64,000 bases of DNA. It comes from Minisyncoccota bacterium (GTDB lineage: Bacteria > Patescibacteriota > Microgenomatia > PFEM01 > JAFGMK01). How positions within the stretch are numbered: the first letter of the stretch is position 1; the number at the start of each line of letters is the position of its first letter. Both the position numbers and the translations under genes were made by a program. This document shows, piece after piece, positions 11,753 to 62,393 of the stretch. The notes beneath the pieces are model-generated. The model saw only the letters and a program-made list of their open reading frames with translations, did not search any database and was not told where the DNA came from. Location: assembly GCA_016927565.1 (NCBI GenBank), contig JAFGMK010000018.1:13119-77118 (forward strand), written 5' to 3'.

Positions 11753-12099
11753 AAAATCAATAAAATAAGTTTTGCACAATCTAAGCCGACTTATTCACAT
11801 AATTATCAACAAAAAAGCCGGGGTTTTACAGACGAAAAAGGGCCAAAACAAAGTTAGCCTATAGGGCAGAAAAGTTTTCTTTGTAAGTTAGTAGGATAAT
11901 TCTGGAGTTATCCACTTTTCAGCAGGCAAAACGCAGTCGCGATTTGCACTTTTACCCAAAGACTATTAGAACTACTACTATCTTTAGATAGTATTTAATT
12001 TTTAGTTGCTGATTATTAAAGACAATGGGGATAACTATCCAAAGATTTTCTTTCTGGAAAAACATAATTATTTAATTTACAATGAGAAAGGGTCTTTTT
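11753..12099 (+). promoter_or_regulatory. Putative oriC segment in the dnaA-dnaN spacer, with DnaA-box-like 9-mers and an AT-rich stretch
   Basis: TTATTCACA lies at 11791-11799 and TTATCCACT at 11908-11916. The AT-rich run tatttaatttttagttgctgattattaaag lies at about 11985-12020. The region upstream of dnaA also holds 1-mismatch boxes, TGTGGAAAA and TTATCCCCA. Confidence 0.5.
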
Positions 12100-13221: not shown

Positions 13222-13247
13222 ACGGGTTTGGGATTAGTTAGCTATCC

Positions 13248-13282
13248 GATCCCGGATCGAAGGATTAAGACGATCCGGGATC
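13248..13282. repeat. Palindromic element GATCCCGGATCG-N11-CGATCCGGGATC, copy 1 of 3, between convergent gene ends
   Basis: A perfect 12-bp inverted repeat with an 11-nt loop. Related copies lie at 33460-33494 and 34685-34720. Confidence 0.6.
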
Positions 13283-13298
13283 AGTCATTTTTTGTCAC

Positions 13299-14336: not shown

Positions 14337-14350
14337 GATTTTATTTTGTC

Positions 14351-20177: not shown

Positions 20178-21278
20178 CTAAGGAACAGGACTGGTTATTT
20201 CGGGCGGTTTTTCCTCCTGAGGCGCCACTGCTTTGACTAATTTATCGATTTCTGCCTGAGTACTTTCTTCTCCGGTTTCATTAACGGCTTCTTCTGCTCG
20301 GGGAAGAGTGGTGGTAGGAAATGTTTTCGCCGAGACCGGCCGGGAGGGAAGAGTTTGATCTTGAGATGAAGTTTCGATCTGAGGCGGTAGGGAATTTTTA
20401 GTTGAAACCGGTTTGATTGCCGGTGGATTTGGGGCCGAAGAAGAAGCGGGTGCCGGTGTTGGGATTGGCGGCGATGGTGGATTTGGGGCCGGCGGAGCCG
20501 GAGGAAGCGGGGATTCGGGTGTCTGGCCGGATTTTTCTGTCGGTTCGGCGGCGGTTTCAGCCGGAATGACAACCGGAGCCTGAATAAAATTAGCGGCAGG
20601 CTTAACTAAGGGCGTCTCATAATCGGCTGAGGTAGATAAAATCTGCCCGAAGCTGTTGGGATTGTAGATCTCATAAAAAAGCTTGATTAATTCCTGGTTG
20701 TTTAATTGCCTTGATCTTAAACCCAGGCGGTTTAATAGTCTGATGAGATGATCTCTTTTGGGGAATAAGTTGGTTTTGGCTTTGTTTAGGACATAGTCCT
20801 TGGGAAAGGGCAGGCCCCGCTTTTTTTTAAGCTTAGAGCCTAAGTTTTGGCTGATTCCCAGTTCCAAAGATGACATGGGGATAATGATATAAAAACTTTT
20901 TTCCAGGACATTGTTGACCTGGACGGTATTTTGAATAAATTCGTGGTATTTTTGAATTTGAGTCTTAAATTCTTTTTTGACGGTCCTTTTTTCCTGTTCG
21001 GTAATTAATTTCAGGTAGGCGGTGATGTCTTTTCTTTTTGACCGGATTAAAATCTGGATTGAGAAGGTGAGCGAGTTCAGAAGGGCGCCATAAGCATAAA
21101 TGGCGGCATCTTGTTCTTTCTCGGACAAAAGGCCAAAGTTAATCGCAGTGGTGGTAATGATTAAGATGCAGCTGCCGTCCTTGAGAATAACGATGCCTTC
21201 CTTAATGTCTTCAATTTCCAAAAAAGATTGGGTGCTGGCTTTGACTGGGGTGGTGCTGGCAGGTTTTCCTGATTTCAT
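20178..21278 (-). CDS. Hypothetical T4SS-associated protein with a Pro-rich C-terminal half
   Basis: The 366-aa ORF lies between the PrgI-like gene and virB4. A PAPPAPNPPSPPIPTPAP tract is present. Confidence 0.35.
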   Translation of the reverse strand: MKSGKPASTTPVKASTQSFLEIEDIKEGIVILKDGSCILIITTTAINFGLLSEKEQDAAIYAYGALLNSLTFSIQILIRSKRKDITAYLKLITEQEKRTVKKEFKTQIQKYHEFIQNTVQVNNVLEKSFYIIIPMSSLELGISQNLGSKLKKKRGLPFPKDYVLNKAKTNLFPKRDHLIRLLNRLGLRSRQLNNQELIKLFYEIYNPNSFGQILSTSADYETPLVKPAANFIQAPVVIPAETAAEPTEKSGQTPESPLPPAPPAPNPPSPPIPTPAPASSSAPNPPAIKPVSTKNSLPPQIETSSQDQTLPSRPVSAKTFPTTTLPRAEEAVNETGEESTQAEIDKLVKAVAPQEEKPPEITSPVP

Positions 21279-22318
21279 TTGGCTCTGATTTCAATGGGAG
21301 GAACAATTTCTCCGGTCAGATTTAACTTGATTATATCAAAAACCAACTCTTCTTTTTCAACCTCGATTTCATAAGTGCCGTTGCTTAAAGGAGTAACAAT
21401 CTGGAATTGGCCGAGGCGATTAGTTCTTAAAGCTCTGACGGGTAAACCCTCTCTGTCTCTGATTTCAATAATTGCATTCTCGACGATTTTGCCTTCCCGG
21501 TTTAAAACCATGCCGACGATAATGTTAGGCTGGGTGGAGGCGTTGGGAATGGGAAGTTCGGTTGAGGTTTTAGCCTGAACGCGGAGCTGGTCTTTTCTAG
21601 GTTTAGACGGCGAAATTTTTATCCGGGGTAATTTGACTGACTTCGGCTTCTTTTTTTCTTGGGTGGGAGGAGCCGGCAGGGAGGTTTTTTTAGCCGTTGG
21701 CGGGAAGCCGATTTTAATAACGGCTGCCTCTGAAGGCGGAGCCGATAATTTACGGGGTTTGATTTTGAGCTGGGGCATGAGCTGGTCGGTGATTTTTAGT
21801 CTTTTGGGTTCAGGAGTGATGGTTGGCGGCAGTTTGGTTGAGGCAAAAAGGTTGTTAATGGATGATAAGGCTGCGGTTTCTTCTTTTTCCGCCTCGGTTT
21901 CAGAAGCCGGGGGTGAAAGAGTATTGAGATATTTTAAAAGATTGGCCTGAGTCAGTTGAGTTGCCGGAGCAGTGGCGGTTTGGGAAATTGGCCGCAATCC
22001 CGGAGTATCTGCTAAAAAGGCAGGCAGTCTTTTTTCCTTTCGCCAGACAAACATCGTGGGGGTGTAAATTGAGTTGATAAAGGCCGTTAGCCATTGGTCC
22101 AGCGGCCGGTCTTCCAGAGGCAGAAATGCCAGAGCAAAACCAAGAAGTCCGAATAAAAGAACAAAAAACCATTTAAATAATCCCGGGATCGGGAGAACAT
22201 AGAAAAAAAGAGCCAGGACCAAGCCGCCGGCCAATTGAGAAAACTGGCGCAAAGTCATATCGCCGATCAGGCGAAATTGATAGGCTGATATCTGCTGAGG
22301 AATCGGGTGTTGTTCCAT
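21275..22318 (-). CDS. PrgI/VirB3-like membrane protein with a long C-terminal extension
   Basis: The N-terminus IPQQISAYQFRLIGDMTLRQFSQLAGGLVLALFFYVLPIP is followed by a second TM helix. It resembles the PrgI-family consensus (VPQ.I..EDKI.GPLT.KQF.YL.GG) as I remember it. Confidence 0.5.
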   Translation of the reverse strand: MEQHPIPQQISAYQFRLIGDMTLRQFSQLAGGLVLALFFYVLPIPGLFKWFFVLLFGLLGFALAFLPLEDRPLDQWLTAFINSIYTPTMFVWRKEKRLPAFLADTPGLRPISQTATAPATQLTQANLLKYLNTLSPPASETEAEKEETAALSSINNLFASTKLPPTITPEPKRLKITDQLMPQLKIKPRKLSAPPSEAAVIKIGFPPTAKKTSLPAPPTQEKKKPKSVKLPRIKISPSKPRKDQLRVQAKTSTELPIPNASTQPNIIVGMVLNREGKIVENAIIEIRDREGLPVRALRTNRLGQFQIVTPLSNGTYEIEVEKEELVFDIIKLNLTGEIVPPIEIRAK

Positions 22319-22400: not shown

Positions 22401-22985
22401 GTGGTTTGTTTTCTATTTTCTAATTTCCGGTTTTATTGTAATATAAGCCTAATGGTTTCCACCGGAGCTTTGATTATTCTGGCGATTTTGGCCTTGTCTG
22501 TCTTTTTATGGCCGACATATATTATGCTGGCTGATTTAATGGGAGCACCTTACGTGCCGGTTGAGCCGGAAGTAGTTAAACGGATTCTGGAATTGGCGGA
22601 AGTAAAAAAAGGAGAGGTTTTTTATGATCTGGGCTCCGGCGACGGCCGGGTGGTGATTGGAGCAGCTTTAAAAGGAGCTCGGGCTTATGGGGTGGAAATT
22701 GATCCCTTTCGGGCTTGGTATTCGCGGTTTTGGCTGAAGCTTCTGCGCTTAAAGCAAGCCAGGATTATCCGGAAGGACTTCTTTGATGTTGATCTGTCGA
22801 AGGCTGATGTGGTTTGTTTTTTTCTCTTGCCGGAAACGAACAGGAAGCTGGAAAAAAAACTGAGAAGGGAGCTTAAGAAAGGCGCTCGGGTAGTTTCGGT
22901 CAGCTTTCCGGTGCCGGGGTGGCGGCCGGTAGCAGTTGATCCCCGCGGACCGATTTACGGCCCGATCAGGCTTTATCAGGTTTAA
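22401..22985 (+). CDS. Class I SAM-dependent methyltransferase with an N-terminal TM anchor
   Basis: Motif I VFYDLGSGDGRVV is present. An N-terminal hydrophobic helix ALIILAILALSVFLW precedes it. Confidence 0.55.
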   Translation: MVCFLFSNFRFYCNISLMVSTGALIILAILALSVFLWPTYIMLADLMGAPYVPVEPEVVKRILELAEVKKGEVFYDLGSGDGRVVIGAALKGARAYGVEIDPFRAWYSRFWLKLLRLKQARIIRKDFFDVDLSKADVVCFFLLPETNRKLEKKLRRELKKGARVVSVSFPVPGWRPVAVDPRGPIYGPIRLYQV

Positions 22986-25752: not shown

Positions 25753-27420
25753 TTAGCCTCGGAAAAGCCCGCCGATTTGCTGGCCGATCCGCTGGGCGGC
25801 TTGAAGTTTTTTAAGTTTTGCAAATTCGGCTTCATAGGTTGATCCTGCAGGAACATTCCTGACTAATTGTTGCTGGATATCAGCGCGGTGGCCGAGGTAG
25901 CCTTGAGCTCCGCTAGAAATTGGACCAACTGCTTCTCCAATCGCCGTGTCACGGCCGCCCAGACCGGCTTTAAGCATTGATTGAGCCATTTCGGCAATTT
26001 TCGGGGCATAGAAAAACATCCCCAAGCCTAAAATTTGCAATGCGTGTTCTGGAGAAAACTCACCCATTAAAGGCAGGCGGATTTCATGAGCCCGGGCTTC
26101 GAGTCCGATCGGAATTTCGCCTCTGGCACCGCCCATAAAGATTGATGACAGGACAAAAAGAGTTCCGGTGACCGGAAAAGTCACCGCCTGAGCCATTACA
26201 TTTTTGAGCCAGCCGTTAAAGGCTTTAGAGCCCGGGAAAACATCCATGAAGATCCACAGCGGGGCAACAATGGTGTAAAGAACGAGGAAGATAAAAGCTT
26301 TAATGATCATCCAGGTGGTTTTAATTGCTGTCCAAAGCAAAATAGCGGCGAGAATAAACCAGCCGATTACCATTAAACCCTGCTCGGTTAAACCGGCCGG
26401 ACCGCCGAAAACCGCCTGGGCGGCATTAGCCAGACCAACAAAGGAAGCGATAAAGCTGTTCGGCAGGATCCTCCACATTGAGTAGCCAAAAGCACTGCGT
26501 TCCATCAGCCCCCGCCGGAAGCCGTCATAAGCCAGAGTATTGCGGAAATCGCCGACACTGGAAACGATTTCGTAGGCAAAGAGAGTTGAAAACCAGATCA
26601 GATCCATAATCAGACCGACAATAGCGTAAGAAAAAGTGACCAGAAGGAGAGTGATAATCATTTTAGGCAGGGCCTGCTGGATAGTGACTACGGTACGGGG
26701 GTCAAGTTTGGTTCTAAACATTATCATAAAACCAATAATGACGGCGGCGACGGCGAAAAGAGCATAGGCGGCATTTCTGAACACTGTCCACCAGGGGATT
26801 AGTCCGGCCATGGAGTTATAGCCGAAACCCTGAGCCTGAGCCGGTTGTGATAAGCCGACTTTTTGACCCAGCCAGCTGAAATACCGGAAGCCGGAAACCG
26901 GCATTTTTTGAGAAATAAGCCTGGTCATTGTCAGGGTTCTGGTCAGGATGCCGGATTCCAAACCGGCGATTGGCAGGGGCTCTTTATTTTCGACAAACCA
27001 AAGAGCGGCGTCGGCGCAATAGGGAACAACATTTAAACAATCGCCGAAATCAGCAATGTCACCGCTGAAAACTTTATGGCTGCAGAGGACGCCCCAATAA
27101 AGACAGTTAATCAGTTCTATCCGGGTGAGGTAGTAAATCGGAATTCCCAAAAAAAGAGCTTTAAAGGTTTCGGAAACAAAGCTTTCCAAATTCATTTCCG
27201 GCGATTCAAGAGCGGGGTGGAAAACATCGGCGTAGTATTCTAACAAACCGGTTTCAGTATCGCCGATTACGCCGAGGAAATTAATGGCTTTGAAAGGGGT
27301 GGAGTCGTAAGCAAGTGCCGGTTTGGCAGATAGAGGCAATAAAATGACCAGCAGAAGAAGCGCCAGTCCTCTTTTCAGCTTTGCCAATTTTTTCAGGATC
27401 ATATAGTTTAAGTTTAACAA
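25753..27420 (-). CDS. VirB6/TrbL-like polytopic T4SS channel protein
   Basis: A signal peptide is followed by an extracytoplasmic domain of about 200 aa and then 5-6 TM helices. It lies in the T4SS cluster. Confidence 0.5.
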   Translation of the reverse strand: MLNLNYMILKKLAKLKRGLALLLLVILLPLSAKPALAYDSTPFKAINFLGVIGDTETGLLEYYADVFHPALESPEMNLESFVSETFKALFLGIPIYYLTRIELINCLYWGVLCSHKVFSGDIADFGDCLNVVPYCADAALWFVENKEPLPIAGLESGILTRTLTMTRLISQKMPVSGFRYFSWLGQKVGLSQPAQAQGFGYNSMAGLIPWWTVFRNAAYALFAVAAVIIGFMIMFRTKLDPRTVVTIQQALPKMIITLLLVTFSYAIVGLIMDLIWFSTLFAYEIVSSVGDFRNTLAYDGFRRGLMERSAFGYSMWRILPNSFIASFVGLANAAQAVFGGPAGLTEQGLMVIGWFILAAILLWTAIKTTWMIIKAFIFLVLYTIVAPLWIFMDVFPGSKAFNGWLKNVMAQAVTFPVTGTLFVLSSIFMGGARGEIPIGLEARAHEIRLPLMGEFSPEHALQILGLGMFFYAPKIAEMAQSMLKAGLGGRDTAIGEAVGPISSGAQGYLGHRADIQQQLVRNVPAGSTYEAEFAKLKKLQAAQRIGQQIGGLFRG

Positions 27421-27443: not shown

Positions 27444-30400
27444 TCAAAACTTAACCATTTCTTTGGGTACCATTTCATTCATGAAGTATTTCCGGAAAAC
27501 ATCAACCGCGCCGATATAGGGATAGTAAAATCTGGCCTGAGTATCGTTGATGCTTTCCCAGCCTCTAAAATCCCGGCCGAGAGAGTCTTTAGTCGGCGGT
27601 TCCCCTCCGGGGGCATTTTCGCCGCAGCCGTCGCTGTGGCAAATTCTTTCGCTGTCTTCGCAATCCGGATCATTGAGGCATTCGTCGCAGTTGCAATTGG
27701 CTTCGCAGTTGGGGGCCGGGTTGCCGCCGCATGGAGTGCCGCAGCTGTCTGTTCCCGCGCAGTAGTCAATGCAGCGATTTTCTTCGCAGACACATTCAGT
27801 GCCGGCGCATTCCCGCCGCACAATGAAAAAACCTGCCGTTCCGCCGCAATTAAAAGAATCATAAACATCGCTGGCCATGCACATCGGGTTGTTGTCCCAA
27901 CTGAAATTTCCGAGAGGACAGAAGTTAAGCTCGTTTATATCCGGTTCGAGGCCGCATTCCCGATCCTCAAAAGCTTCGCAACAGCCCCAGTGGGTTTGGG
28001 GGTTTTCTTCTCTTTCGAGATTATTGTCGTATTCGTAACTGGCGGGGCCGTAGCCTGGCAGTTCATACCAGAGCAACCGGCCCCCGGCGACTTCTTTGAT
28101 TAAACCGATGATGTTCTCAGTATAGAATTGAGGTAACATCAGCCGGAAAAGGCCGGCGGGGCCAATCGTTCTTTTGGCAATTTCCCTCAGATAGGGGATT
28201 TTGGTGGTGATCCAGGCATGAGGCCATTCAGGAGTTTCCCAGGTGTTGCGGGAAAAGACGCTGGTGTGGCGTTCGGGGAAGACGCAGGAAGGTTCAGAAT
28301 CACAGCCCCAGTCGCCGGCACCAGCTTCTACTTCATCATACCATTCGTTGTAAAATTCAATGCCCCGATCAGTGTACCCCGGCGCATCTCCGGCGATAAC
28401 ATCATTGGCCAGGGCATTGCCGGGTCCGCCGCGTACTACGCTGTTGACATTGCAATTTAAAAATTGAGAAAAAGGATTGTCCAGGGCCAGGGTGGTCATT
28501 GAGCCGTCGTTTCCCCAATACTCTTCCGAGTCGCGGTTTTGATAAACGAAGGGAGTCAGGGGCATTGCCGCCCATTCCGAAAGCTCTTTAGATTCCGGAA
28601 TATGGGGAATATAGATCATCTGAACATAGTGGAGCTCATAAAGAGGCTCGCCGCTGATTTCAGAAGCGACTCTTTCCGGCGGATTGCCCAGCCAGAGCTC
28701 AAGCCAGTAGTAGCCGTCGTGGTTGTTAACGGCGTCGTAAAGATAATCAATCGGAAGGGAAGAGGGAACGGTAATTTCCCGGAGGCGAGAGGTGTAATTT
28801 TCGCCGGGAATGTCGATATTAGCCGGGTCGGGCCAGATGCTGGTTACTCCCAGATCGACAAAAGCGGGGGCGTCCTCTTTTGAAGCCAGAGGAAAATAGT
28901 GGAGCCAGGCGGTCTTTTGGTCACCGGTCAGCGGCAGGGAAATGCCGCTGGGCAAGTCGGACAAAGTGATATCTTTGTAGAGGTGATAATCGTGAACCGG
29001 ATCATTGGAAATCAGCCGGCTATAGTTATTCTTTAGAATCTGGTCCTGCCAGCCCGGTTCGCAGACCCGGTCCGAGCTGTTTCCCATTCGGCATCGGATA
29101 AACTGCCTCCTATAGGCATTATCCCGCAGGATGGGATCGGGAAACAGTTTTCTGATCGGTCCGCTTTCATTTTGAATCCGGCGGTATTCTTTTTCCTGGT
29201 CTTCGAAATCAGCGTTCCGGTTATCCTTAACTTCTTCACCGTCAAAATAAACCGTTCCCCGTAAGAAATCGCTTAGGAAAAAGGACATTCTTTCCGTATA
29301 ATCTGCAAATTGGCGGGAGGCAGTTTCGCTGTTCCCCAAAAATGGAATTTGGGTGGCGCGGACGCTGTCGATCCATTGAGTTTTGATCTCGCCGAGCAAT
29401 TCGAAGTAGTGAGTTAAACCGTTTGGCTCATCCGGAAGGGGGAACCAATCCAGATTATCAGTGATCTCAGGTGCCGGGTTGCAGTAAACGGTAATTTGAT
29501 TATCATTGTCAAGTTTAGTCAGGTCGTAGCAATTGGCCGCACCCCGGCGGGCATCGGCATCGCCCGGAAAAGGACGCCAGGGGGATCGGTCGTTATAGAG
29601 ATCGCCCAAGCTTTTTCTGCAAGGAATTCCTTCGCCATAGACCGGCGGTCGGGCCCATTCGGTATTGCGTTTCGGGGGTAATTCAATTGGTCCCATTGAG
29701 CCTCTCTCGCTTTCGCTAACCAGTTCACAACCATCGGTTAATTCTTCGTTGTTGAAGGTGTAGAAGCGAATGTCGCTCAAATTTGGAGCAGAGGCCGACC
29801 AGCCGAAGGTGGCGCCGGTACACATGTCTAAGGGAAGAGGGGTGACGGCAATAAAACCGTCTGCTTGGAAATATTTGCTTCCGTGTTGGATCAGATCAAC
29901 ATAGAAACTGTAATAATTGCTTGGGGGGAGAGAGGGATTGGGGCCGTATTCGGTAAGGATTCTTGGTTTATTAGTGTTGATGCCAAAACTATTCATCACT
30001 CCGATTTCCCAACGCCAAGAACGCCTCCCAAAAGGGTCCTCGGCACAATCAGGTCCGCAATTGGGGTTGTCATAAGCGACAAAGGCAAGAACTTGCAGGC
30101 TGTTTAAAACCGCTAAGCCGTCAGGAGCGTCAGCAGCATACTGCCAGAATCGATCAGCACTGCCGCAGTGGGTGCAGAGGGGAGCATTAGCGGCCCGGAA
30201 GTTGCCTTGACGGGTAGTGAATTCTTTTAAAAGCCTGATGTAGTCGGCGGTAACTTTTCGGAAACTAGCTTCATCTTTGTCAATATGGGTTCCTCCCCAT
30301 TCGTCATAAACATTAGGTTCATTGAGGACGCTGATAATTGGGATCCAACCGTCAGGAAAACTGACATTAGCCTCAGCAATACCGGCAGAAAGGCCTGTAG

Positions 30401-30758
30401 CGGCAGCAACAGCCTCTTCTTGAGTCATAATTGCCCAGTGTCCGCTTTGAGTGCGGGTGACGAGCCTGATGATAGGTAAAAAATGGAGGCTGTGAAGATC
30501 GTGGATTAAGCTGGCAACATGATCCGGGTCAGCCGCGCGATCGACACCGACCATAAGAGTGACCGGGACCCAATCGGCTCCCAAGTTGTTGGATCGTTCT
30601 CGGACAGTTTGAAAAAATCCCCGATCGCTATTATTAATCAGGTGAGTTCCAAGCATTTGCCGGGATTCGCCATAAACGTGATTGGGGAAAACCCCGCTGA
30701 GAATTAAGCCGGAAAGAACTAAAAAGCTCCTCACAAGCCAAGTTTTGATGAGTTTCAT
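27444..30758 (-). CDS. Secreted roughly 1100-aa protein with a GH clan-A (GH5-like) TIM-barrel glycoside hydrolase signature and a Cys-rich C-terminal region
   Basis: The likely start is ATG 30758 (MKLIKTWLVRSFLVLSGLILSGV, a signal peptide). IISVLNEPNV is an NEP acid/base motif, and RILTEYGPN is a TE(Y)G nucleophile motif. The C-terminal roughly 150 aa contain about 30 Cys in CxxC, CxC and CNC patterns. Confidence 0.45.
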   Translation of the reverse strand: MKLIKTWLVRSFLVLSGLILSGVFPNHVYGESRQMLGTHLINNSDRGFFQTVRERSNNLGADWVPVTLMVGVDRAADPDHVASLIHDLHSLHFLPIIRLVTRTQSGHWAIMTQEEAVAAATGLSAGIAEANVSFPDGWIPIISVLNEPNVYDEWGGTHIDKDEASFRKVTADYIRLLKEFTTRQGNFRAANAPLCTHCGSADRFWQYAADAPDGLAVLNSLQVLAFVAYDNPNCGPDCAEDPFGRRSWRWEIGVMNSFGINTNKPRILTEYGPNPSLPPSNYYSFYVDLIQHGSKYFQADGFIAVTPLPLDMCTGATFGWSASAPNLSDIRFYTFNNEELTDGCELVSESERGSMGPIELPPKRNTEWARPPVYGEGIPCRKSLGDLYNDRSPWRPFPGDADARRGAANCYDLTKLDNDNQITVYCNPAPEITDNLDWFPLPDEPNGLTHYFELLGEIKTQWIDSVRATQIPFLGNSETASRQFADYTERMSFFLSDFLRGTVYFDGEEVKDNRNADFEDQEKEYRRIQNESGPIRKLFPDPILRDNAYRRQFIRCRMGNSSDRVCEPGWQDQILKNNYSRLISNDPVHDYHLYKDITLSDLPSGISLPLTGDQKTAWLHYFPLASKEDAPAFVDLGVTSIWPDPANIDIPGENYTSRLREITVPSSLPIDYLYDAVNNHDGYYWLELWLGNPPERVASEISGEPLYELHYVQMIYIPHIPESKELSEWAAMPLTPFVYQNRDSEEYWGNDGSMTTLALDNPFSQFLNCNVNSVVRGGPGNALANDVIAGDAPGYTDRGIEFYNEWYDEVEAGAGDWGCDSEPSCVFPERHTSVFSRNTWETPEWPHAWITTKIPYLREIAKRTIGPAGLFRLMLPQFYTENIIGLIKEVAGGRLLWYELPGYGPASYEYDNNLEREENPQTHWGCCEAFEDRECGLEPDINELNFCPLGNFSWDNNPMCMASDVYDSFNCGGTAGFFIVRRECAGTECVCEENRCIDYCAGTDSCGTPCGGNPAPNCEANCNCDECLNDPDCEDSERICHSDGCGENAPGGEPPTKDSLGRDFRGWESINDTQARFYYPYIGAVDVFRKYFMNEMVPKEMVKF

Positions 30759-30954: not shown

Positions 30955-31365
30955 TTAGTTAGTAGGTTCGGGAAGGGTAAAGATGGTGACATTGAGGCCG
31001 GTGATCAGCTTGATGGCCTGTAAAATGAGCCAAGCGGCCAGAATAACGGCTAAGCCAATCACTGCGTAAGTTAGGGTTCCGCTCGCTTTTTGAGCCTGTT
31101 TGGGGTCTTCGCCGGCAGTTAAATACTGAAAACCGCCGATTACAAACATTACTAAAACCCCCATTCCGGCCAGGGTGGTGACAACCATCACTACCCGTCG
31201 GAAAACAAACTCCAAGTCATAAATCTGAGCCGGTTGATCAGTTTGGGACCAGCCGGAGACCGGAGAGAGTTCCAAAAACAAGGTTAAAACAAAAAAAGAC
31301 CCCCAGAAGAATAATTGATTTAAAGTTTTTTTTAATTTCATTAGTTTTTTAAACCGACTCTCCAA
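30955..31365 (-). CDS. T4SS pilin-like protein (CPR T4SS_pilin/VirB2-like), paralogue 6
   Basis: A signal/TM segment is followed by FQYLTAGEDPKQAQKASG and a second TM helix (two hydrophobic helices with a divergent GEDP form of the GGDK motif). Confidence 0.6.
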   Translation of the reverse strand: MESRFKKLMKLKKTLNQLFFWGSFFVLTLFLELSPVSGWSQTDQPAQIYDLEFVFRRVVMVVTTLAGMGVLVMFVIGGFQYLTAGEDPKQAQKASGTLTYAVIGLAVILAAWLILQAIKLITGLNVTIFTLPEPTN

Positions 31366-31366
31366 G

Positions 31367-31407
31367 TTATCTCCCGTTCTTTCCGCTGGGGGGAGAACGG
31401 GAGATAA
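31367..31407 (-). terminator. Intergenic stem-loop with a 14-bp perfect stem between pilin paralogues 5 and 6; candidate attenuator or terminator
   Basis: gttatctcccgttct-(13 nt)-agaacgggagataat. A hairpin after the first pilin gene is common in pilin operons. The downstream U-tract is weak. Confidence 0.35.
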
Positions 31408-31422
31408 TCTTGGATTTGCCGC

Positions 31423-31839
31423 TTAGCTGGCAACACTCAGGTCGCTCAGGTTAAGCTGAAGCAGACTGACACCAAAGAACATCTGAATCAATTGGATAAT
31501 TGCCCAAGAACCAAAGACAATTAAAAGACCAACCAGGGCGGCAGTGATGGTGTTACGGGCGGCTTCGGTTTTGCCCTTGTCGCCACCAGAGGTGATCCAC
31601 TGGATACCGCCGTAGATCAAAAAGCCAAAAGCGATCATAGCGGCAATGACCAGTGCCAGAACAATCAAACTCCTGATCATTCGGGGAAGGCTGATGTTGC
31701 CTAAACTGGCGAATTGGTCACTTGGTGAAATGTTAAACGTCAAGTCATCGGCCAATACAGGGCTAGCGGCCGTAATCAACGGCAGAGCTGCCAAAGCCAG
31801 AACCCCGGCTGTTTTAATCAGTTTTTTCATATTTTTCAC
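31423..31839 (-). CDS. T4SS pilin-like protein, paralogue 5
   Basis: A signal peptide is followed by IQWITSGGDKGKTEAARNTITAALVGLLIVF. Confidence 0.65.
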   Translation of the reverse strand: MKNMKKLIKTAGVLALAALPLITAASPVLADDLTFNISPSDQFASLGNISLPRMIRSLIVLALVIAAMIAFGFLIYGGIQWITSGGDKGKTEAARNTITAALVGLLIVFGSWAIIQLIQMFFGVSLLQLNLSDLSVAS

Positions 31840-31941
31840 CCCCCTTCAAATTCTCAAAAAAAGACTTTATTATTTAATTTTTAAAAAAAAAGATTGCTAA
31901 GTCAACCCGGTCAGCCCGATTTCATCTAGAAAACCGGTTTT

Positions 31942-32301
31942 TTAGGAACTGACCGTCGGTAGTTTAATCTGAATTAGATTAATTCCAAATATTGCTCCGA
32001 TTGCTTTTATTATAGCAAAAAGGGAGAAGAGAATAAAGAGTCCGAGAAGCGCCTGGGCAATCTTGTCTTTGGCCTGCGCCAGCAGGGCTTTGTCACCGCC
32101 GGCGCTCATCCAGTGATAAGTACCCATTACCAGATAGAGGAAAGCGGATAAAAAGCCGATAATTAATAGGGTTGTAACGGTAATTGAAATAATTTTTCCT
32201 AAAATTTCAACCCCGTCACCGCTGCCCAGAACCGGCAGGGCTTCGTTGACAATTCCTTGAGCTAAAACAGCTGAACTAATCAAAAAGGTTAAGAGCCCCA
32301 T
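31942..32301 (-). CDS. T4SS pilin-like protein, paralogue 4
   Basis: YHWMSAGGDKALLAQAKDKIAQALLGLFILF flanked by two TM helices. Confidence 0.65.
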   Translation of the reverse strand: MGLLTFLISSAVLAQGIVNEALPVLGSGDGVEILGKIISITVTTLLIIGFLSAFLYLVMGTYHWMSAGGDKALLAQAKDKIAQALLGLFILFSLFAIIKAIGAIFGINLIQIKLPTVSS

Positions 32302-32657
32302 ATGTCTCCCAATAGGCTGCCGGGCTGAAGGATGGAAAAGCCCAAAACAAAGCCTAAGACTGAAATAATGGCGTAGGCGGCCACCAGGACAACCAGGCCG
32401 ATAACGGCTTGAACAATTTTATCTCGGGCTTTCTGGAGTTTATTTTTATCGCCGCCGGCTTCGATCCATTGGAAAGCGGCAGTGATAAAAATAAATAGGA
32501 AATAGATGCCTCCGCCAATTGTCATAATCCCGATTATTACTGAGATTACTTTTTCCAAAAGGGAAAGGGGTTCGGCCGGGTTAATGTTGGTATACATCGG
32601 GCCGACGCCGACAAAGTTGCCCAGACTGACCGAACTGGCATGCACTTTTCCGATCAT
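32289..32657 (-). CDS. T4SS pilin-like protein, paralogue 3
   Basis: FQWIEAGGDKNKLQKARDKIVQAVIGLVVLV flanked by two TM helices. Confidence 0.65.
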   Translation of the reverse strand: MIGKVHASSVSLGNFVGVGPMYTNINPAEPLSLLEKVISVIIGIMTIGGGIYFLFIFITAAFQWIEAGGDKNKLQKARDKIVQAVIGLVVLVAAYAIISVLGFVLGFSILQPGSLLGDIWGS

Positions 32658-32681
32658 ATTTTTTAAAGAAATTAATTTTGA

Positions 32682-33056
32682 TTAGTTAGGTGTATAAATT
32701 TTCGGATTGATAATCGCGGTCGGATCATTAAAGATAAGCCAGCCCAAGATAGCCGCCAGAGCCAGGGAACCGGCAACTACCGCTACTCCTAAAAGTGATT
32801 GCCAAATTTTGTTCCAGGCCTGGACAACTTTGTCCATATTGCCGTCGGCATTAAGAAAGCCGTAGCCGGCAGTGATAACATTGAAAAGAGCCCAGATACC
32901 GCTGAAGACAATGATGGTTCTTAAAAGGTTGTTAGCCAGGATAATAAGACCCTGGCCTTCAGTGCTGGGGTAAGAATCGGGGCTGATTGTTGCCCAGGGA
33001 TCGCTGATAGAACCGAAAACAGTCAGCATTCTAAAAAATAGGATTAAGAATATCAA
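32682..33056 (-). CDS. T4SS pilin-like protein, paralogue 2 (divergent motif)
   Basis: Two TM helices flank NADGNMDKVVQAWNKIWQSLLG. Confidence 0.5.
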   Translation of the reverse strand: MIFLILFFRMLTVFGSISDPWATISPDSYPSTEGQGLIILANNLLRTIIVFSGIWALFNVITAGYGFLNADGNMDKVVQAWNKIWQSLLGVAVVAGSLALAAILGWLIFNDPTAIINPKIYTPN

Positions 33057-33357
33057 TGCCGGTAATGGCGCCGATAATCTGAATTATCCAATAAGAACTA
33101 ATAATAATCAAAAAACCTACGATGGCAACGGTAACCATTCCTTTATTTTTGGCAAAACCTTCTTTTTCACCTTTGCCTGCGTTCATGATAATCCCAAACC
33201 CGCCAGCGATCAAGAGGAAGAAAAAGATAACCCCGGCGAGAATATAAATGTTGGGCAGCATTACTTGAATTAGGTGACCGAAGGAAGTAAAAACCGGCGG
33301 ATTAAGGTCCGGTTCAAAGATATCGACGCCGCCGCCGGCGAAAACAGGTTTAATCAT
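33031..33357 (-). CDS. T4SS pilin-like protein, paralogue 1 (divergent motif)
   Basis: Two TM helices flank NAGKGEKEGFAKNKGMVTVAIVGFLII. Confidence 0.5.
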   Translation of the reverse strand: MIKPVFAGGGVDIFEPDLNPPVFTSFGHLIQVMLPNIYILAGVIFFFLLIAGGFGIIMNAGKGEKEGFAKNKGMVTVAIVGFLIIISSYWIIQIIGAITGIDILNPIF

Positions 33358-33459
33358 GATTATAATTTTAACTGAAAGGAAGTTTGTTTTGCAAATTAGG
33401 AGGGGTTGTTGGCCGAAAATCTTGTTCTTTTTATTCTGGTCGATCAGACAGCTCCCTCC

Positions 33460-33494
33460 GGTCCCGGATCGAAATCCGCAGACGGTCCGGGATC
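33460..33494. repeat. Palindromic element GGTCCCGGATCG-N11-CGGTCCGGGATC, copy 2 of 3
   Basis: The arms differ from copy 1 at two symmetric positions, so that G-U pairs replace A-U. The loop AAATCCGCAGA resembles the copy 3 loop. Confidence 0.55.
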
Positions 33495-33512
33495 ATTATC
33501 TTTGTTAAAGGC

Positions 33513-34646
33513 ATGAGTAATTACGGAGTCGGATGTTTAGAAAGAGGATTTAAAAAAAATCGTGTTATACTAGCAGGCACTGTGGATGTAAAAAAATACT
33601 TGGCTTCTTATCGGGAAAGGGCTGGTCGGTTTATCGATTCCTTCTTTGAGGTTGAGGCAGAAAAAGCAGCTCTGGTTTCACCTTTTTGCGCCGAGTTAAT
33701 GAGAATCTATCAGAAGTTTGCCAAGGGGGGGAAGATGGCTCGAGGGGCGTTGGTGTGTTTAGGGTACCAATCGATTGGCGGAAAGGATCATTCAGCGATT
33801 TTAGCCCCCTCAATAGCCGTCCAGCTAATTCATTCTTTTTTATTAATCCACGATGACTGGATTGATGGAGATTTAAAGCGCTATGGCCAACCGACGGTTT
33901 ATAAACAGATTGAGAAGATTTATGGAGAACGCTTTAAAAAGGGTGATCGTCAGCGCTGGTCCGGAGGATCGGCTTTTGTTCTGGGAGACATTGGTTGCTT
34001 TTTGGCCCATAAGTTGATAGCAGATTCAGATTTTCCTGCTCGGGCAAAGGTGAGGGCGATTTCTTTCTTGTCGCAGAATCTGGTTCAGACTGGTCATGGG
34101 GAAATTTGGGACATTACCTATGATTTAGTGACTGGTTTTTCCTGGGATGAAATAGTCAAAATCCGGAAACTAAAAACTGCTTACTACACTTTGGTGATGC
34201 CGCTTCAGGTAGGGACTTGTTTGGCTGGCGGGAGTCAGGCGGAGCTTAAGGCGGCCGAAGAATACGGTTTTCCGGTGGGGATTGCTTTCCAGTTGCGGGA
34301 TGACTATCTGGGCCTGTTCGGGGATGAGGTGAAAACCGGCAAATCGGCCAGTTCGGATTTACGGGAAGGAAAAAAGACTTTAATAATTGCCAAGGCGCTT
34401 GAGATTTTAAAAGGGAAGGAAAAAAAGATTTTGAAGCAAGCTTTGGGAAATAGAGAATTGACTGGGGAACAAATTAACCAAGTAAGATTAATTATCAAAG
34501 CCTCAGGAGCGGTAGACGATTGCCAGAACCTGGCTCAAGAGCTAATTGAAAAGGGTAAAAAAGCGATTCCAAAACTAACGAGTGATAAGAGCCTGCAGGA
34601 AATTTATGCCAGTCTGGCGGACTATTTAGTCAATCGGGAGAAATAA
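33513..34646 (+). CDS. Polyprenyl diphosphate synthase (trans-isoprenyl diphosphate synthase family)
   Basis: The first Asp-rich motif LLIHDDWIDGD and the second FQLRDDYLG are present. The start was moved to ATG 33513 because the upstream in-frame extension overlaps the palindromic repeat. Confidence 0.8.
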   Translation: MSNYGVGCLERGFKKNRVILAGTVDVKKYLASYRERAGRFIDSFFEVEAEKAALVSPFCAELMRIYQKFAKGGKMARGALVCLGYQSIGGKDHSAILAPSIAVQLIHSFLLIHDDWIDGDLKRYGQPTVYKQIEKIYGERFKKGDRQRWSGGSAFVLGDIGCFLAHKLIADSDFPARAKVRAISFLSQNLVQTGHGEIWDITYDLVTGFSWDEIVKIRKLKTAYYTLVMPLQVGTCLAGGSQAELKAAEEYGFPVGIAFQLRDDYLGLFGDEVKTGKSASSDLREGKKTLIIAKALEILKGKEKKILKQALGNRELTGEQINQVRLIIKASGAVDDCQNLAQELIEKGKKAIPKLTSDKSLQEIYASLADYLVNREK

Positions 34647-34684
34647 AAAGATAACTCAGTTTCTTTAACAATCCAGGATTATCC

Positions 34685-34720
34685 GATCCCGGAAGGGAAA
34701 TCTGCAGACGATTCGGGATC
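34685..34720. repeat. Degenerate copy 3 of the GATCCCGG palindromic element
   Basis: GATCCCGGAAGG-GAAATCTGCAGA-CGATTCGGGATC, with the conserved flank TCCGATCCCGGA shared with copy 1. Confidence 0.4.
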
Positions 34721-34853
34721 GGGGAGAACTAATTACAAAGCAAACAGCCCAGGGGTGTTTGCAGAATTAATGCTAATCACTCCTGCAAGGTGGCACCCTG
34801 CCATCGGCGGGGATAACTTCTTGAAGTGTGTGATGGTTAGGAGGGATTGAAGA

Positions 34854-35426
34854 ATGCGGGAGAGCATAACCAACCGGGTGATTCAAAAAGCGATTTTCGG
34901 TGATAAGACGGCCCAGGGGGAAATTTTTAAAGGCTATAGGAAACGGGTTTTGAATTTTATTCTTCAGCGGGTTGAAAATTTGGAGGATGGGGAGGAAATT
35001 TTGCAGGAAACTTTTATTTCCGTTTTTGAGGCTTTGCCCTTTTATTCAGCTCGTTCAACATTGCTGACCTGGATTTGCGGCATTGCCCGGCATGAGGTGG
35101 CTGATTTTTACCGCAAAAAAAAGATAAAAACGGTTGTTTTTTCCTTTTTTCCCGGCTTGGAAGGGTTTGTCAGTCGAGCCTTATCGCCGGAGGGGATTCT
35201 GGAGCAGAAAGAAGCCAGGGAAAAAATTAAAAAAATTCTGGCGCTTTTGGCCGAAGGATATGAGCAGGTTCTGCGACTAAAGTATATTGAGGGCTTTTCG
35301 GTTGCTCAGATTGCTCAGGAACTGGATGAAACTCAAAAAGCAATCGAATCCCGGTTGACCCGGGCCCGGGAGGCCTTCGGGAGGCTTTATGTCGTTATCA
35401 ATTCAAAAAGCCAAGAAGGAGATTAG
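34854..35426 (+). CDS. ECF-type RNA polymerase sigma factor (sigma-70 regions 2 and 4)
   Basis: Region 2 ILQETFISVFEALPFY...TWICGIARHEVADFYRKK and region 4 GFSVAQIAQELDETQKAIESRLTRAR are present. Confidence 0.8.
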   Translation: MRESITNRVIQKAIFGDKTAQGEIFKGYRKRVLNFILQRVENLEDGEEILQETFISVFEALPFYSARSTLLTWICGIARHEVADFYRKKKIKTVVFSFFPGLEGFVSRALSPEGILEQKEAREKIKKILALLAEGYEQVLRLKYIEGFSVAQIAQELDETQKAIESRLTRAREAFGRLYVVINSKSQEGD

Positions 35427-35790
35427 TTTTTTAAAAAGATTGTTTTTATTAGTAGGCTTCCGGCAGGTCTATTTTTTTTTGAAAAATCTTCTGGGGATGA
35501 TAATTCATCCCAGGTTGACAACCGCTAAGATCTTAAAAAACCGTGATTACTCCCAAGCCTTTTTAGTTTTTGGCCTGCCTATTGGTCTTTGGTTGGTGCT
35601 TTTGGGTGTTAGCTTTGTTGGCTGGTATTTTCTGCGGCCAAGTAACTGGTTTTTTTATTTAGGCTTGGGCTTTTTTCTGACGTTTTCTCTTTTTCTGCTG
35701 GTATTAGTGCTGTACGACTTTTATTGGGTGGGGAAGTACTTTGAAGGAAAAAGGAGAAAAGAGGAAAAAAAAGGGGGGTGGAGGAGTTAA
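35389..35790 (+). CDS. Small polytopic membrane protein downstream of the ECF sigma; possible anti-sigma factor
   Basis: Three or four TM helices; it overlaps the end of the sigma gene. Confidence 0.3.
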   Translation: MSLSIQKAKKEISFLKRLFLLVGFRQVYFFLKNLLGMIIHPRLTTAKILKNRDYSQAFLVFGLPIGLWLVLLGVSFVGWYFLRPSNWFFYLGLGFFLTFSLFLLVLVLYDFYWVGKYFEGKRRKEEKKGGWRS

Positions 35791-36090
35791 TTGTGGGAGT
35801 TGCGCAGTTTTATCGGTTGAGAAACCAATTTCTTCGTTTGGAAGGCGAAGAATGTTTAAGTGAGGGTTGTCGGGATGGGGAAGGAAAGGGCGGTTGCAAG
35901 ATGTTTCCGCCTCATGATGTTTGTCGGAGGTGTGGAGGAACTGATCCTCAAAGGGTCTACAGATTAGATGGAGATAAACCAACGCTGCGGGAAGTCCGGT
36001 TTCCGGTTTTAGCGCGAGTTGGCGGACGAGAGAGGGGCGGATAAGGGCTTTGTTTTTTTTATAAAGCTGCTTGTATTTAAGGAGAAAAGA

Positions 36091-36852
36091 ATGGAAAAGG
36101 GAATCGGGGCTTTTGATCCTGCTCTTTGGCCAGATCGATCAAAAGGTTATAAAGAATTAGGTTGGGTAAATGCTCGGGGGCCGCTTGAAAAGATGGTGGA
36201 GTTGATTGCGCCTAGGGGAAATGAGATTATTTTGGATGTTGGAACCGGGACTCAGGCGATTCCTAAAGAACTGGCGCCTTTATTGCCTGATGGTTCTATT
36301 CTGGCTTTTGATCTTTCTGCAGATATGTTAAGAGCTGATGGGACGACGAGTGCTGATTTGTTTAGAGCTGATGCTCATCAGATTCCTTTGGCTGAGGGAA
36401 GTGTTGATGTGGTGACAGCAAGAATGATCCTTCACCATTTAGAAAAACCCGATGTGGCTTTGGAAGAGATGTGCCGGGTGTTGGTTCCTGGTGGATTTAT
36501 GGTGGTTAGTGAATATGTGGCTATAGATGAAGAGATTTGGACGTTCGAAAGGGGAGTTTTTGATATTAAGGAGCCAGGAAGACATCTTTGGACTGGGGAT
36601 CAATTGGCATCTTTAATATCTTCGACTTTGGGAGTGGCGGTGGAATTGGACTATGCAATGATGCCGAGATATAGTGTGAGAGATTGGATGGGGAAGAGCG
36701 GATTGTCACCGGAAGTTCAAGAAAGAGTTTTGAATTGTTACCTTTGCGCACCTCAAACAATTGTTAAAAAGATGGGAATTGTTTATTCTGATGGTGATGC
36801 TTTGGTTGATCGTTCTTTTGGTTTTGTTAGAGCGTTCAAACAAGATGAATAA
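36091..36852 (+). CDS. Class I SAM-dependent methyltransferase (Methyltransf_11/UbiE-like)
   Basis: Motif I ILDVGTGTQAI and the post-I acidic DLSADML are present, as is VDVVTARMILHHL. The start was set at ATG 36091, which has an AGGAGAAAAG Shine-Dalgarno sequence. Confidence 0.7.
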   Translation: MEKGIGAFDPALWPDRSKGYKELGWVNARGPLEKMVELIAPRGNEIILDVGTGTQAIPKELAPLLPDGSILAFDLSADMLRADGTTSADLFRADAHQIPLAEGSVDVVTARMILHHLEKPDVALEEMCRVLVPGGFMVVSEYVAIDEEIWTFERGVFDIKEPGRHLWTGDQLASLISSTLGVAVELDYAMMPRYSVRDWMGKSGLSPEVQERVLNCYLCAPQTIVKKMGIVYSDGDALVDRSFGFVRAFKQDE

Positions 36853-37447
36853 AAAGCAATTACAACAGATTGAAGAACTGGCCAGAGTCTTTTATAAAAA
36901 GACGGGCAATTACCATGATTGGGGTCATGTCTTGGCGGTAAAGAAGCATATTTTAAATTTACTGAGGGAGATTGACAGAGCCAATGAAAATCTTTTGTTG
37001 GCGGCATGTTATCTTCACGACATTGGTCGCTCGGTTAAGGATGAAGGTCATCCGGCTGAAAGCGTCCGTCTAGCAAGCCCCTTGCTTAAGAAAGTTGGTC
37101 TTAGTAAAGCGGAAACAGATATTATTTTAGATGCGATTGAGTTTCACACAGCCCCTGAGATTTGTCAGGCAAAGACCTTGGAGGCAAAGATTCTTTTTGA
37201 AGCAGATAAGCTGGAGATTCTTTCAGTGGCTGGTTTTTTGCGGACCCTACTGTTTGTAATTGAAGAAAGGAAGATGAGTTTGTCAGCAGGGCTGGATTTT
37301 CTTTGGAGTTATGCCCGAGAGGTACAAAAGAAATATCTTTGGACAGAGAGAGCTAAGAGTGTTGCCAAAAGGGAGATGAAAGTACTTGGTCAGGTTTATA
37401 TCTTTTATAAAAGATGGCAAAGCCGATATTGGAAACAAAAGGAATAA
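36845..37447 (+). CDS. HD-domain phosphohydrolase
   Basis: H...HD motif: WGHVLAV...LAACYLHDIGR. The start was set at ATG 36845. Confidence 0.65.
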   Translation: MNKKQLQQIEELARVFYKKTGNYHDWGHVLAVKKHILNLLREIDRANENLLLAACYLHDIGRSVKDEGHPAESVRLASPLLKKVGLSKAETDIILDAIEFHTAPEICQAKTLEAKILFEADKLEILSVAGFLRTLLFVIEERKMSLSAGLDFLWSYAREVQKKYLWTERAKSVAKREMKVLGQVYIFYKRWQSRYWKQKE

Positions 37448-38202
37448 CTGTGAAAATTAGAAGCCAGTTAAAACTGGATCCGAAAAAAATTCCTGCCCAT
37501 GTGGCGATTATTATGGACGGGAACCGGCGTTGGGCGGCTAAACACGGTTTGGGGCCGGTCGATGGCCATTGCCAAGCGGCTCAAGAAGCGATTGAGCCCC
37601 TGATCAAAGCAGCAATTGGGTTGGGGATTAAGTATTTAACTCTCTGGGCGTGGAGCACCGAAAACTGGCGCCGGGATAAAATTGAAGTGAACGGGATCAT
37701 GAAGCTTTTCAGTAATGGTCTTAAAGACAATCTGGAGCGGTTTCAGAAAATGGGAGTGAGGTTGAATTACCTGGGTGATTTGTCCCGCTTTTCGAAGGCA
37801 ATCAGCCGGCGGGTTTTAAATCTGGTTAAGAAATCAAAAGAGAACAAGGTGATCACCGTGACTTTTGCGCTAAACTATGGCGGCCGGGATGAGATTTTAA
37901 GAGCGGTTAAAAGGCTGATTAAGACGGGAAGAAAAGTTTCTGAGATTGATGAGAATCTTTTTGCCAGTTGCCTTGATACTGCCGGAATGCCTGATCCGGA
38001 TTTGGTCATCAGGACCGGTGGCGCCAATCGTCTTTCCGGATTTTTACCCTGGCAGGCAGTTTACTCGGAGTTTTACTTTACGCCGGTCCTGATGCCGGAT
38101 TTTACTCCCGGGAAGCTTAAGAAGGCGATTGCTTCTTTTCAGAAAAGGGAACGCCGCTTTGGCGGCGGCAGTTTTTCTGTTTACCGGAAAAATAAGGGAT
38201 AG
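37414..38202 (+). CDS. uppS: Undecaprenyl diphosphate synthase (cis-prenyltransferase)
   Basis: HVAIIMDGNRRWA...YLTLWAWSTENWRR...IRTGGANRLSGFLPWQAVYSEFYF is the canonical UppS sequence. Confidence 0.9.
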   Translation: MAKPILETKGITVKIRSQLKLDPKKIPAHVAIIMDGNRRWAAKHGLGPVDGHCQAAQEAIEPLIKAAIGLGIKYLTLWAWSTENWRRDKIEVNGIMKLFSNGLKDNLERFQKMGVRLNYLGDLSRFSKAISRRVLNLVKKSKENKVITVTFALNYGGRDEILRAVKRLIKTGRKVSEIDENLFASCLDTAGMPDPDLVIRTGGANRLSGFLPWQAVYSEFYFTPVLMPDFTPGKLKKAIASFQKRERRFGGGSFSVYRKNKG

Positions 38203-44955: not shown

Positions 44956-45343
44956 GGGGACGAAAGGTTTCGACGGAGCCGGCTCTTTAACAACTGCAAG
45001 CCGCCGTTGATTCATCGGCGTTAAACAGAATCAAAAAAATAAATGCTGAAGACGAAGATTTCAGCGGTTCTTATGCTTATGGCAATTTTGTCTACGCAAC
45101 CTTGCCTTGCTAAGACCTGTCTTTGAGATTCTTTCCTGATGGAGTCTTTAAAGGCATAAACCCAGTCAGGATGCCGTCTTAAAACAGTTGACTAGCGGTT
45201 TAAGATCAAGCCTAATTAGTCTTAGCCCCGCTTTCCGGTTGGCAGGATCAGGCTGGGGTGAAAAAAAATAAAAGCCGACTAAGCTTGTAGAAGTTGTTGA
45301 AAGTATGTTTCGGACCCCGGTTCAAATCCGGGCGTCTCCACCA
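44956..45343 (+). ncRNA. ssrA: tmRNA (ssrA)
   Basis: The 5' end GGGGACGAAAGGUUUCGACGG is paired with the 3' end GGUUCAAAUCCGGGCGUCUCCACCA. This gives a tRNA-Ala-like acceptor with the G3:U70 pair, a T-arm and CCA. It lies immediately downstream of smpB. Confidence 0.8.
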
Positions 45344-62357: not shown

Positions 62358-62393
62358 AAAATTAAAGAAAATTAAAAGAGAATTTAGAAAATT

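Follow-up and report, generated by a model that had tools for sequence, protein, structure and literature searches.

We analysed a 64,000-nucleotide stretch of contig JAFGMK010000018.1 from a Minisyncoccota bacterium (hereafter, the window), in which the minus-strand gene at 27444..30758 encodes a protein of 1104 residues. We judge it fairly likely that this protein is a secreted retaining β-glycanase serving as a fixed accessory of a pilus-bearing type IV secretion system (T4SS) locus, in a small group of Patescibacteria of the Microgenomates type. That it is a functional component of the T4SS/pilus system is probable, and its assignment to a surface glycan of the host cell as target is put forward more tentatively. 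The catalytic fold, that of clan GH-A of the glycoside hydrolases (GH), and its chemistry are already known; the literature searched gave no description of a new GH-A family combined with fusion to an orphan module and a fixed T4SS/pilus position with exchange of the catalytic head.

The T4SS of Patescibacteria is of the Gram-positive (MPF-FATA-like) type and comes with arrays of VirB2-like pilins (PMC12102498). In S. epibionticum it is reported as essential for epibiotic growth, and its role is stated as unknown (PMC10633639, PMC11665869). A secreted glycanase hard-wired into the T4SS locus of one lineage would be a concrete, assayable component, the substrate of which would reveal which envelope layer the machine crosses, and whose. 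If the heads differ because the hosts differ, the protein would also mark the host range of organisms that have not yet been cultured. In addition, the analysis defines an unmodelled GH-A family, the members of which are now annotated as "hypothetical", and flags an orphan module of ~575 residues.

Gene and Overall Architecture

The minus-strand open reading frame (ORF) is uninterrupted and ends at 27444, and its mechanical extension reaches a TTG codon at 30914. The ATG at 30758 has the ribosome-binding site AGAGG in front of it at the right spacing, and the N-termini of the homologs all match this start, each with an equivalent Met followed by a basic and hydrophobic leader. The ATG was therefore taken as the real start, and the longer TTG-started ORF, which lacks both homolog support and the ribosome-binding site, was rejected. 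The gene thus comprises 1104 codons and a TGA stop at 27444-27446, and its product is 100% identical to the NCBI entry "hypothetical protein JW991_03600" from a metagenome-assembled genome of Candidatus Pacebacteria.

Residues 1-30 (MKLIKTWLVRSFLVLSGLILSGVFPNHVYG; 30669..30758, minus strand) are assigned as a signal peptide, the cleavage point of which is inferred. The hydrophobic leader at residues 6-24 is the sole hydrophobic segment, a Kyte-Doolittle scan giving no further transmembrane segment in the protein, and a similar leader begins every homolog. A membrane-anchored protein was rejected on these grounds; with one leader and no transmembrane segment, the protein is read as exported and either soluble or surface-associated. 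As judged from its sequence, the 1104-residue product is a Sec-exported, multi-domain and presumably extracellular protein. The signal peptide is followed, all on the minus strand, by a (β/α)8 catalytic domain of clan GH-A type (residues 31-345, 29724..30668), an orphan conserved module (residues 346-920, 27999..29723), a Cys-rich segment (residues 921-1062, 27573..27998), and a conserved, Cys-free C-terminal segment (residues 1063-1104, 27447..27572). The initial annotation had spoken of a large polysaccharide-degrading enzyme; the GH-A domain stands, and the size is overstated, since the enzyme domain makes up only about 30% of the protein.

A Predicted Clan GH-A Catalytic Domain

Two motifs had been singled out as the catalytic hallmarks of clan GH-A, namely, NEP within VLNEPNV (residues 144-150) and TE-Y-G within RILTEYGPN (residues 266-274). 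Both are conserved, align on GH5 motifs and fall at canonical positions of the barrel, in agreement with that proposal. When 1.84 billion cluster representatives were searched exhaustively by HMMER with a trimmed 4-sequence profile, only 216 proteins were returned at E ≤ 1e-3, and the N-terminal domain is present in 143 of the 150 matches listed from these 216. The 143 relatives have a low identity of 16-36% to the query domain. Across them, E147, E153 and R98 are each kept in 143/143, N146 in 141/143, N149 in 140/143 and W154 in 137/143; among the ungapped rows, Y229 is kept in 129/132, E270 in 124/124 and G272 in 123/124. The acid/base motif of the GH domain family reads NEPNxxxEWGG. Because the NEP and TE-Y-G motifs are invariant across 143 family members, they are not chance tripeptides.

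From this conservation, together with the alignments and the model described below, E147 of N146-E147-P148 (30315..30323, minus strand; model strand 141-143) is the predicted general acid/base, and E270 of T269-E270-Y271-G272 (29943..29954, minus strand; model strand 266-271) is the predicted nucleophile. Of the active-site residues conserved in GH5 (Arg, His, Asn, Glu, His, Tyr, Glu and Trp), those represented by Arg98, Asn146, Glu147, Tyr229 and Glu270 are invariant in the family, and no invariant His and no invariant strand-8 Trp are found among the columns that are at least 85% conserved in the 143 relatives. In the GH5 enzyme CelD (8ghx), the acid/base is Glu154, which is of NEP type, and the nucleophile Glu278 lies between Arg66 and Tyr231 (PMC10485095). 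By analogy, R98 and Y229 appear to resemble the Arg and Tyr that flank the GH5 nucleophile, and they fit the CelD arrangement.

Family models gave no assignment: the whole protein has no match in Pfam at E ≤ 10, the Cellulase (GH5) model PF00150 included, in NCBIfam, in PHROGs, or by phmmer against the PDB. Its three closest homologs are likewise blank in Pfam and NCBIfam, and no SLT, CHAP or lysozyme family match is found in Pfam, NCBIfam or PHROGs. Profiles of the domain do find solved structures. With the 4-sequence domain profile, the best match in the PDB is the GH5 enzyme EglA (3ayr, E = 6e-6), in which NEP aligns on LNEP and the E270 strand (sEvG) on ILGEYG; the E270 motif aligns on the GEYG stretch of both 3ayr and 8ghx. 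A 20-sequence profile matched GH5 (2.5e-4 and 4e-3), a GH39 xylosidase (8e-3), PslG (0.06) and GH17 (0.23), all of which belong to clan GH-A; a PPR-repeat match of the same profile has no significant stretch and was dismissed as spurious. The GH5 matches (E = 6e-6 to 4e-3) span roughly strands 4-7. A profile of the full-length alignment matched only GH5 in the PDB, on the N-terminal domain, and nothing for residues 346-1104.

A full-length AlphaFold prediction from a 4-sequence alignment has a mean pLDDT of 34 and displays β/α alternation in the N-terminal domain only. Modelling of the domain alone with AlphaFold2 (AF2) from a 20-sequence alignment gave a predicted (β/α)8 barrel with pLDDT 88.9 and pTM 0.90, in which eight strands alternate with helices (14-16, 39-47, 69-76, 117-119, 164-166, 199-204, 242-247 and 278-281 in domain numbering, to which 24 is added for full-protein numbering). 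In this model E147 (domain 123) lies just after strand 4, N146-E147 being 3-4 residues past that strand, Y229 lies just after strand 6, and E270 (domain 246) lies inside strand 7. The placement of E147 at strand 4 and of E270 at strand 7 thus matches the "4/7" arrangement that defines clan GH-A. The initial annotation had staked its reading on a GH family match and on both motifs lying within such a barrel; Pfam and NCBIfam yield no GH match, and both motifs are inside the predicted barrel, with each Glu at its canonical position.

A Foldseek search of the PDB with the domain model returned 96 matches at E ≤ 1e-3, and almost every one of the top 50 is a GH-A structure, with probability 0.99-1.00. 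The list is headed by a GH5 mannanase (3jug, 3.9e-6), followed by members of GH79, GH1, GH86, GH164, GH158, GH30 and GH10; one of the top 50 is annotated as a putative chitinase domain. Conservation, profile matches, model and fold search are four independent lines that agree, and we regard it as very likely that residues 31-345 form a GH-A hydrolase domain. The head would be a catalytically competent retaining β-glycanase, and its relatives appear from their sequences to make up a new family, unmodelled in Pfam and NCBIfam.

By sequence clustering, this GH-A family comprises ~200 clusters at 50% identity, and every member with a named source falls in the Microgenomates group of the candidate phyla radiation, under the names Candidatus Pacebacteria, Gottesmanbacteria, Roizmanbacteria or "Patescibacteria group". 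The contig that carries the homolog P0009, DATKWK010000017.1 (L005/L011, 385 kb), was deposited as "Candidatus Bathyarchaeia archaeon". Since this contig carries sigma-70 (ECF), SpoIID and the same VirB4/PrgI/pilin T4SS locus with P0009 in full synteny, its label is probably a binning or classification error. A scan of GTDB species genomes gave one locus only, that of DATKWK010000017.1, so that the taxonomic spread rests on few source names.

A Fixed Position within a Type IV Secretion Locus

In the window, the GH gene is preceded by genes for six small membrane proteins (30955..33357, minus strand). Four of these proteins match PF18895 (T4SS_pilin), with scores that exceed the curated cut-off in two cases and equal it in one. 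It is followed, 23 nt past its stop, by the gene for a 555-residue polytopic membrane protein with a signal peptide and about 5 transmembrane segments (25753..27420, minus strand). The initial annotation had placed a signal-peptide protein between a pilin array and a VirB6-like gene, and the ORF, the leader and the position are all as described. The label "VirB6-like" refers to topology and position only, because the 555-residue protein has no Pfam VirB6 match and no other family match. The core of the T4SS lies farther downstream, likewise on the minus strand, and consists of a PrgI/VirB3-like protein (21275-22318), a 366-residue protein at the position of a TraC-like gene (20178-21278), the VirB4 ATPase (18190-20151), and a 1267-residue membrane protein with a C-terminal M23 peptidase (14351-18154). 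The cluster in the window further contains a divergent 839-residue protein without a family match and a DOT1-like methyltransferase.

The co-location with a secretion cluster, noted earlier for the window, extends to four further loci in which the synteny is kept. In these loci (L001, L003, L004 and L005), the order is pilin gene(s), GH gene, a gene for a ~560-residue polytopic protein, and a reverse-strand gene for a protein of ~800-1100 residues. PrgI, TraC-like and VirB4 genes come next in L001, L003 and L005, and the L004 contig ends earlier; a DOT1 methyltransferase is present in the clusters of L003 and L005. The orthologs encoded in L001, L003 and L004 (P0002, P0003 and P0004) have 31-41% identity to the window protein, and P0009 from L005 has 32% identity over the shared module.

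The position is kept even where the head is not. Three homologs, P0009, P0010 and P0011, keep the central module and have heads that are not matched by the N-terminal domain profile. In Pfam, the P0009 head matches Glyco_hydro_42 at 24.4 bits (cut-off 21), the P0010 head matches Glyco_hydro_cc at 28.9 bits (cut-off 21) and Cellulase at 25.0 bits (cut-off 23.5), and the P0011 head has only sub-threshold matches to Cellulase and Glyco_hydro_42. Alignment of the window head family to these heads by hhalign gave no homology beyond the NEP strand (probability 0.5%), and the possibility that they are divergent copies of the window head was rejected in favour of different GH-A families. Thus, the position is always held by a head of GH-A type, which is not always of the same family. 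The N-terminal ~360 residues of P0008 and P0030 represent a third head type, which has WNDVNN at the NEP position (Asp for Glu) and retains a nucleophile-like strand, LQETGV. As far as its sequence goes, this head might be a variant of GH-A that uses Asp as its acid/base, or might have a different activity.

Orphan Module, Cysteine-Rich Segment and C-Terminus

A profile of residues 346-1104 recovers only ~14 proteins (as clusters) from the same 1.84 billion representatives. Among these homologs, conservation extends over residues ~355-940 and over the final ~40-75 residues, and 13 aligned modules have 40 invariant positions in common, including the polar residues R395, R490, D497, R500, R527, E531, R557, H589, D590, D629, T852 and E899 and the cysteines C380, C410, C426 and C769. 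No match to residues 346-920 is found among Pfam, NCBIfam, PHROG or PDB sequences, and the full-length AF2 model is uninformative there, with pLDDT below 50. The pattern of invariant residues points to an extracellular module that is folded and may have its own site. A sub-piece, corresponding to residues ~458-540 of the window protein, also trails the GH domain in the 659-residue homolog P0014, the gene of which likewise adjoins a T4SS pilin gene.

The Cys-rich segment holds 20 Cys in residues 921-1062, i.e., 14% against 1.5% elsewhere (binomial p about 4e-14). This stretch varies in length and sequence between homologs and is mostly skipped in P0006 and P0008-P0010. The earlier figure of about 30 Cys within 150 residues is too high, since the densest 150-residue window contains 20 and the whole protein 34. 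The description of a Cys-dense tail is accurate with respect to the density and misplaced with respect to the terminus, which is formed by the conserved Cys-free segment of 42 residues (RGW..ARFYYPYIGAxDxFRxY..P). This final segment is present in all full-length homologs, and P0002-P0004 carry further domains beyond it. In P0002 (L001 585-4928), residues ~1113-1447 form a second, unrelated domain that looks like GH-A at the level of motifs (VEVMNEPD and VLITEWGWE) and has no phmmer match in the PDB and no Pfam match. A common C-terminal extension of ~170-210 residues in P0003 (L003 8836-12855) and P0004 (L004 567-4913) contains a W(I/M)EETGAS(H/Y)F motif and paired Cys and is without a family match; judging by these motifs, it could be another hydrolase-type domain.

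Proposed Role and Alternative Explanations

We propose that the protein would be exported by Sec and held at or near the pilus/T4SS apparatus by its conserved non-catalytic part. The GH-A head, in which E147 (end of strand 4) would serve as the acid/base and E270 (end of strand 7) as the nucleophile, would then cut a layer of β-linked polysaccharide that lies in the path of the pilus or channel. The favoured layer would be the surface glycan of the partner (host) cell, because the heads are exchanged between orthologs while the rest is kept, because a variable Cys-rich segment is present, and because an M23 peptidase protein for the cell's own wall is already encoded in the locus. Variable Cys-rich segments are typical of exposed surface proteins. 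The initial annotation had suggested that an epibiont attack factor of this kind would breach the cell wall or capsule of the host, which is plausible as a hypothesis.

Several observations weigh against this proposal. The same large M23-peptidase protein could open the wall. No curated GH family model in Pfam or NCBIfam matches the protein even at the permissive threshold used, and against solved GH-A structures the domain reaches TM-scores of only about 0.5, at 8-15% identity, so that none of the existing families is clearly its home; it lies outside the defined families and offers no reading of its specificity. Furthermore, about 130 other proteins contain a domain of this GH family, and many of them have about 460-570 residues (the largest subgroup of the family has 66 members, mostly in this size range); one short member that was examined sits in a housekeeping context, away from T4SS genes. 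The GH domain is therefore not specific to the T4SS.

The same enzyme might instead act on the producer, opening the cell's own polysaccharide layer for assembly of the pilus/T4SS as a substitute for VirB1, an explanation that we find doubtful and that ranks first among the alternatives. VirB1 homologs are indeed mostly absent from Patescibacteria T4SS loci, and other glycosidases have been suggested as their replacement (PMC12102498). The tight placement of the gene between the pilins and the polytopic channel-like protein, with 23 nt to the next gene, would suit such a role, as would the presence among the weak profile matches of PslG, a periplasmic GH39-like enzyme that processes the cell's own exopolysaccharide. 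Opposed to this are the 1267-residue M23 membrane protein already present in the locus and the lack of any obvious reason why an enzyme of envelope assembly should exchange its catalytic head or carry a variable Cys-rich segment. To our knowledge, the enzymes that cleave the glycan strands of peptidoglycan (GH22-25, 73, 102-104 and 108) do not belong to clan GH-A, which weakens the explanation and still leaves room for a non-peptidoglycan layer. It is quite unlikely that the protein is a nutritional glycanase, which would free fermentable sugars from environmental or host polysaccharide and for which the T4SS location would have no mechanistic meaning. Patescibacteria are thought to ferment the products of their many glycoside hydrolases (PMC11665869), and most members of the GH domain family are shorter and without the central module, one of them among housekeeping genes. 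On the other hand, the exact position is kept across loci whose proteins are 31-41% identical, even where the head has been replaced, and the ~575-residue module is confined to this type of T4SS locus (~14 clusters of the 1.84 billion representatives).

In T4SS loci of the Gram-positive type, large secreted proteins often serve as adhesins, e.g., PrgB, and the barrel could accordingly be imagined as a non-catalytic lectin or pseudo-enzyme through which the pilus system would be tethered to a glycan. This we consider highly improbable, because the catalytic Glu pair, Asn, Arg and Tyr are invariant in 124-143 sequences with pairwise identity down to about 16-20%, which is the pattern of an active rather than a decayed enzyme. 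Unlikely, to a lesser degree, is a more far-reaching version of the proposal, in which the protein would be a depolymerase carried by the pilus or the T4SS, equivalent in a cell to the tailspike of a phage. Here the orphan module and C-terminal segment would dock on the VirB2-like pilus or the channel mouth, and the exchangeable GH-A head would fix which host surface glycan, and hence which host, is breached. The ~575-residue module, with its invariant His-Asp/Asp/Glu/Arg set, would then represent either a novel fold or an additional activity. The same locus position is occupied by two or more unrelated head families, and some orthologs have extra hydrolase-like domains.

Comparison with Known Hydrolases

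The GH5 endoglucanases EglA (Piromyces, 3AYR) and CelD (P. finnis, 8GHX) share with the window protein the (β/α)8 barrel, N-E-P after strand 4, the x-E-x-G nucleophile motif in strand 7, and the conserved Arg and Tyr; they also occur among the Foldseek matches of the domain model. However, the conserved GH5 His and strand-8 Trp are not invariant in the window family, which has an extra invariant pair, E153-W154, six residues past the acid/base, and a compact barrel of about 315 residues. Proteins of the PslG/GH39 type resemble the window protein in that they are GH-A barrels, either secreted or periplasmic, with genes located within a surface-structure locus, and they act on cell-surface polysaccharide, as the window protein may also do. 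Their profile matches cover the strand-4 region only and are not significant alone, and PslG is a two-domain protein of ~440 residues from a polysaccharide-synthesis operon, not from a T4SS locus.

VirB1, PrgK and TraG are likewise exported hydrolases encoded in T4SS clusters and are presumed to clear an envelope polymer. They are lytic transglycosylases of the GH23 type that act on peptidoglycan and may or may not include CHAP or M23 peptidase domains, whereas the window protein has the GH-A fold, carries ~760 residues of unrelated sequence, and leaves the M23 peptidase to a separate protein. In structural searches of BFVD, the best matches come from phages and are proteins of 326-873 residues labelled "glycosyl hydrolase" or GH5 (E = 2e-7 to 2.5e-5), which means that phages also encode a fold of the GH5 type. 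The phage GH5-type hydrolases thus have the catalytic fold in common with the window protein, and phage receptor-binding proteins show head exchange, as do the window-protein orthologs. In contrast to the phage enzymes, the window protein has no phage context and no PHROG match, and its attachment to a pilus is only putative.

Further Features of the Locus and the Window

The window is chromosomal, containing a tmRNA gene, seven tRNA genes and housekeeping genes, and a phage origin was rejected on account of this context. The DOT1-like methyltransferase, a SAM-dependent enzyme with an N-terminal transmembrane segment, has a conserved place in the T4SS cluster, with the gene for the large divergent protein on one side and prgI on the other (window 22401-22985, plus strand; L003 17482-18009; L005 18620-19141). 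For the 366-residue protein at 20178-21278, Pfam gives no match and PHROGs a weak one (E = 1e-5) to the N-terminal end of a terminase large subunit, which a common ATPase-like fold might explain. In L001, the VirB4 gene (11124-14928) is interrupted by an intein (Intein_splicing and LAGLIDADG_3), with a product of more than 1287 residues.

On the other side, genes for a polyprenyl synthetase, an ECF-type sigma factor and an undecaprenyl-diphosphate synthase adjoin the pilin array in the window (33384-38202, plus strand), in L003 (1436-5905) and in L005 (2081-7427). The methyltransferase and HD-domain genes found there in the window also occur in L003, and L005 has mevalonate-pathway genes (AA_kinase, MVD-like) in their place. 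The divergent ECF sigma gene beside the pilins could be a regulator of the locus.

A scan for promoters and terminators around the GH gene gave nothing usefully above background. A very stable hairpin with at least 14 consecutive pairs is predicted at 31350-31425 on the minus strand (-39.8 kcal/mol, z = -6.8 against shuffles). It begins directly behind the stop of the pilin gene at 31423-31839, ends just ahead of the pilin gene at 30955-31365, and is not followed by a U-tract. This element may stabilise or attenuate the transcript and thereby set the ratio of pilin to downstream products, including that of the GH gene. The tmRNA gene (44956-45343, plus strand) has an unusual predicted tag peptide, AEDEDFSGSYAYGNFVYATLPC, with Cys at its end and not the common ..LAA. 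The G+C content falls from about 0.42-0.52 to 0.34-0.36 over 58001-64000 of the window, and a sign change of the GC skew near 12 kb coincides with a switch of the coding strand.

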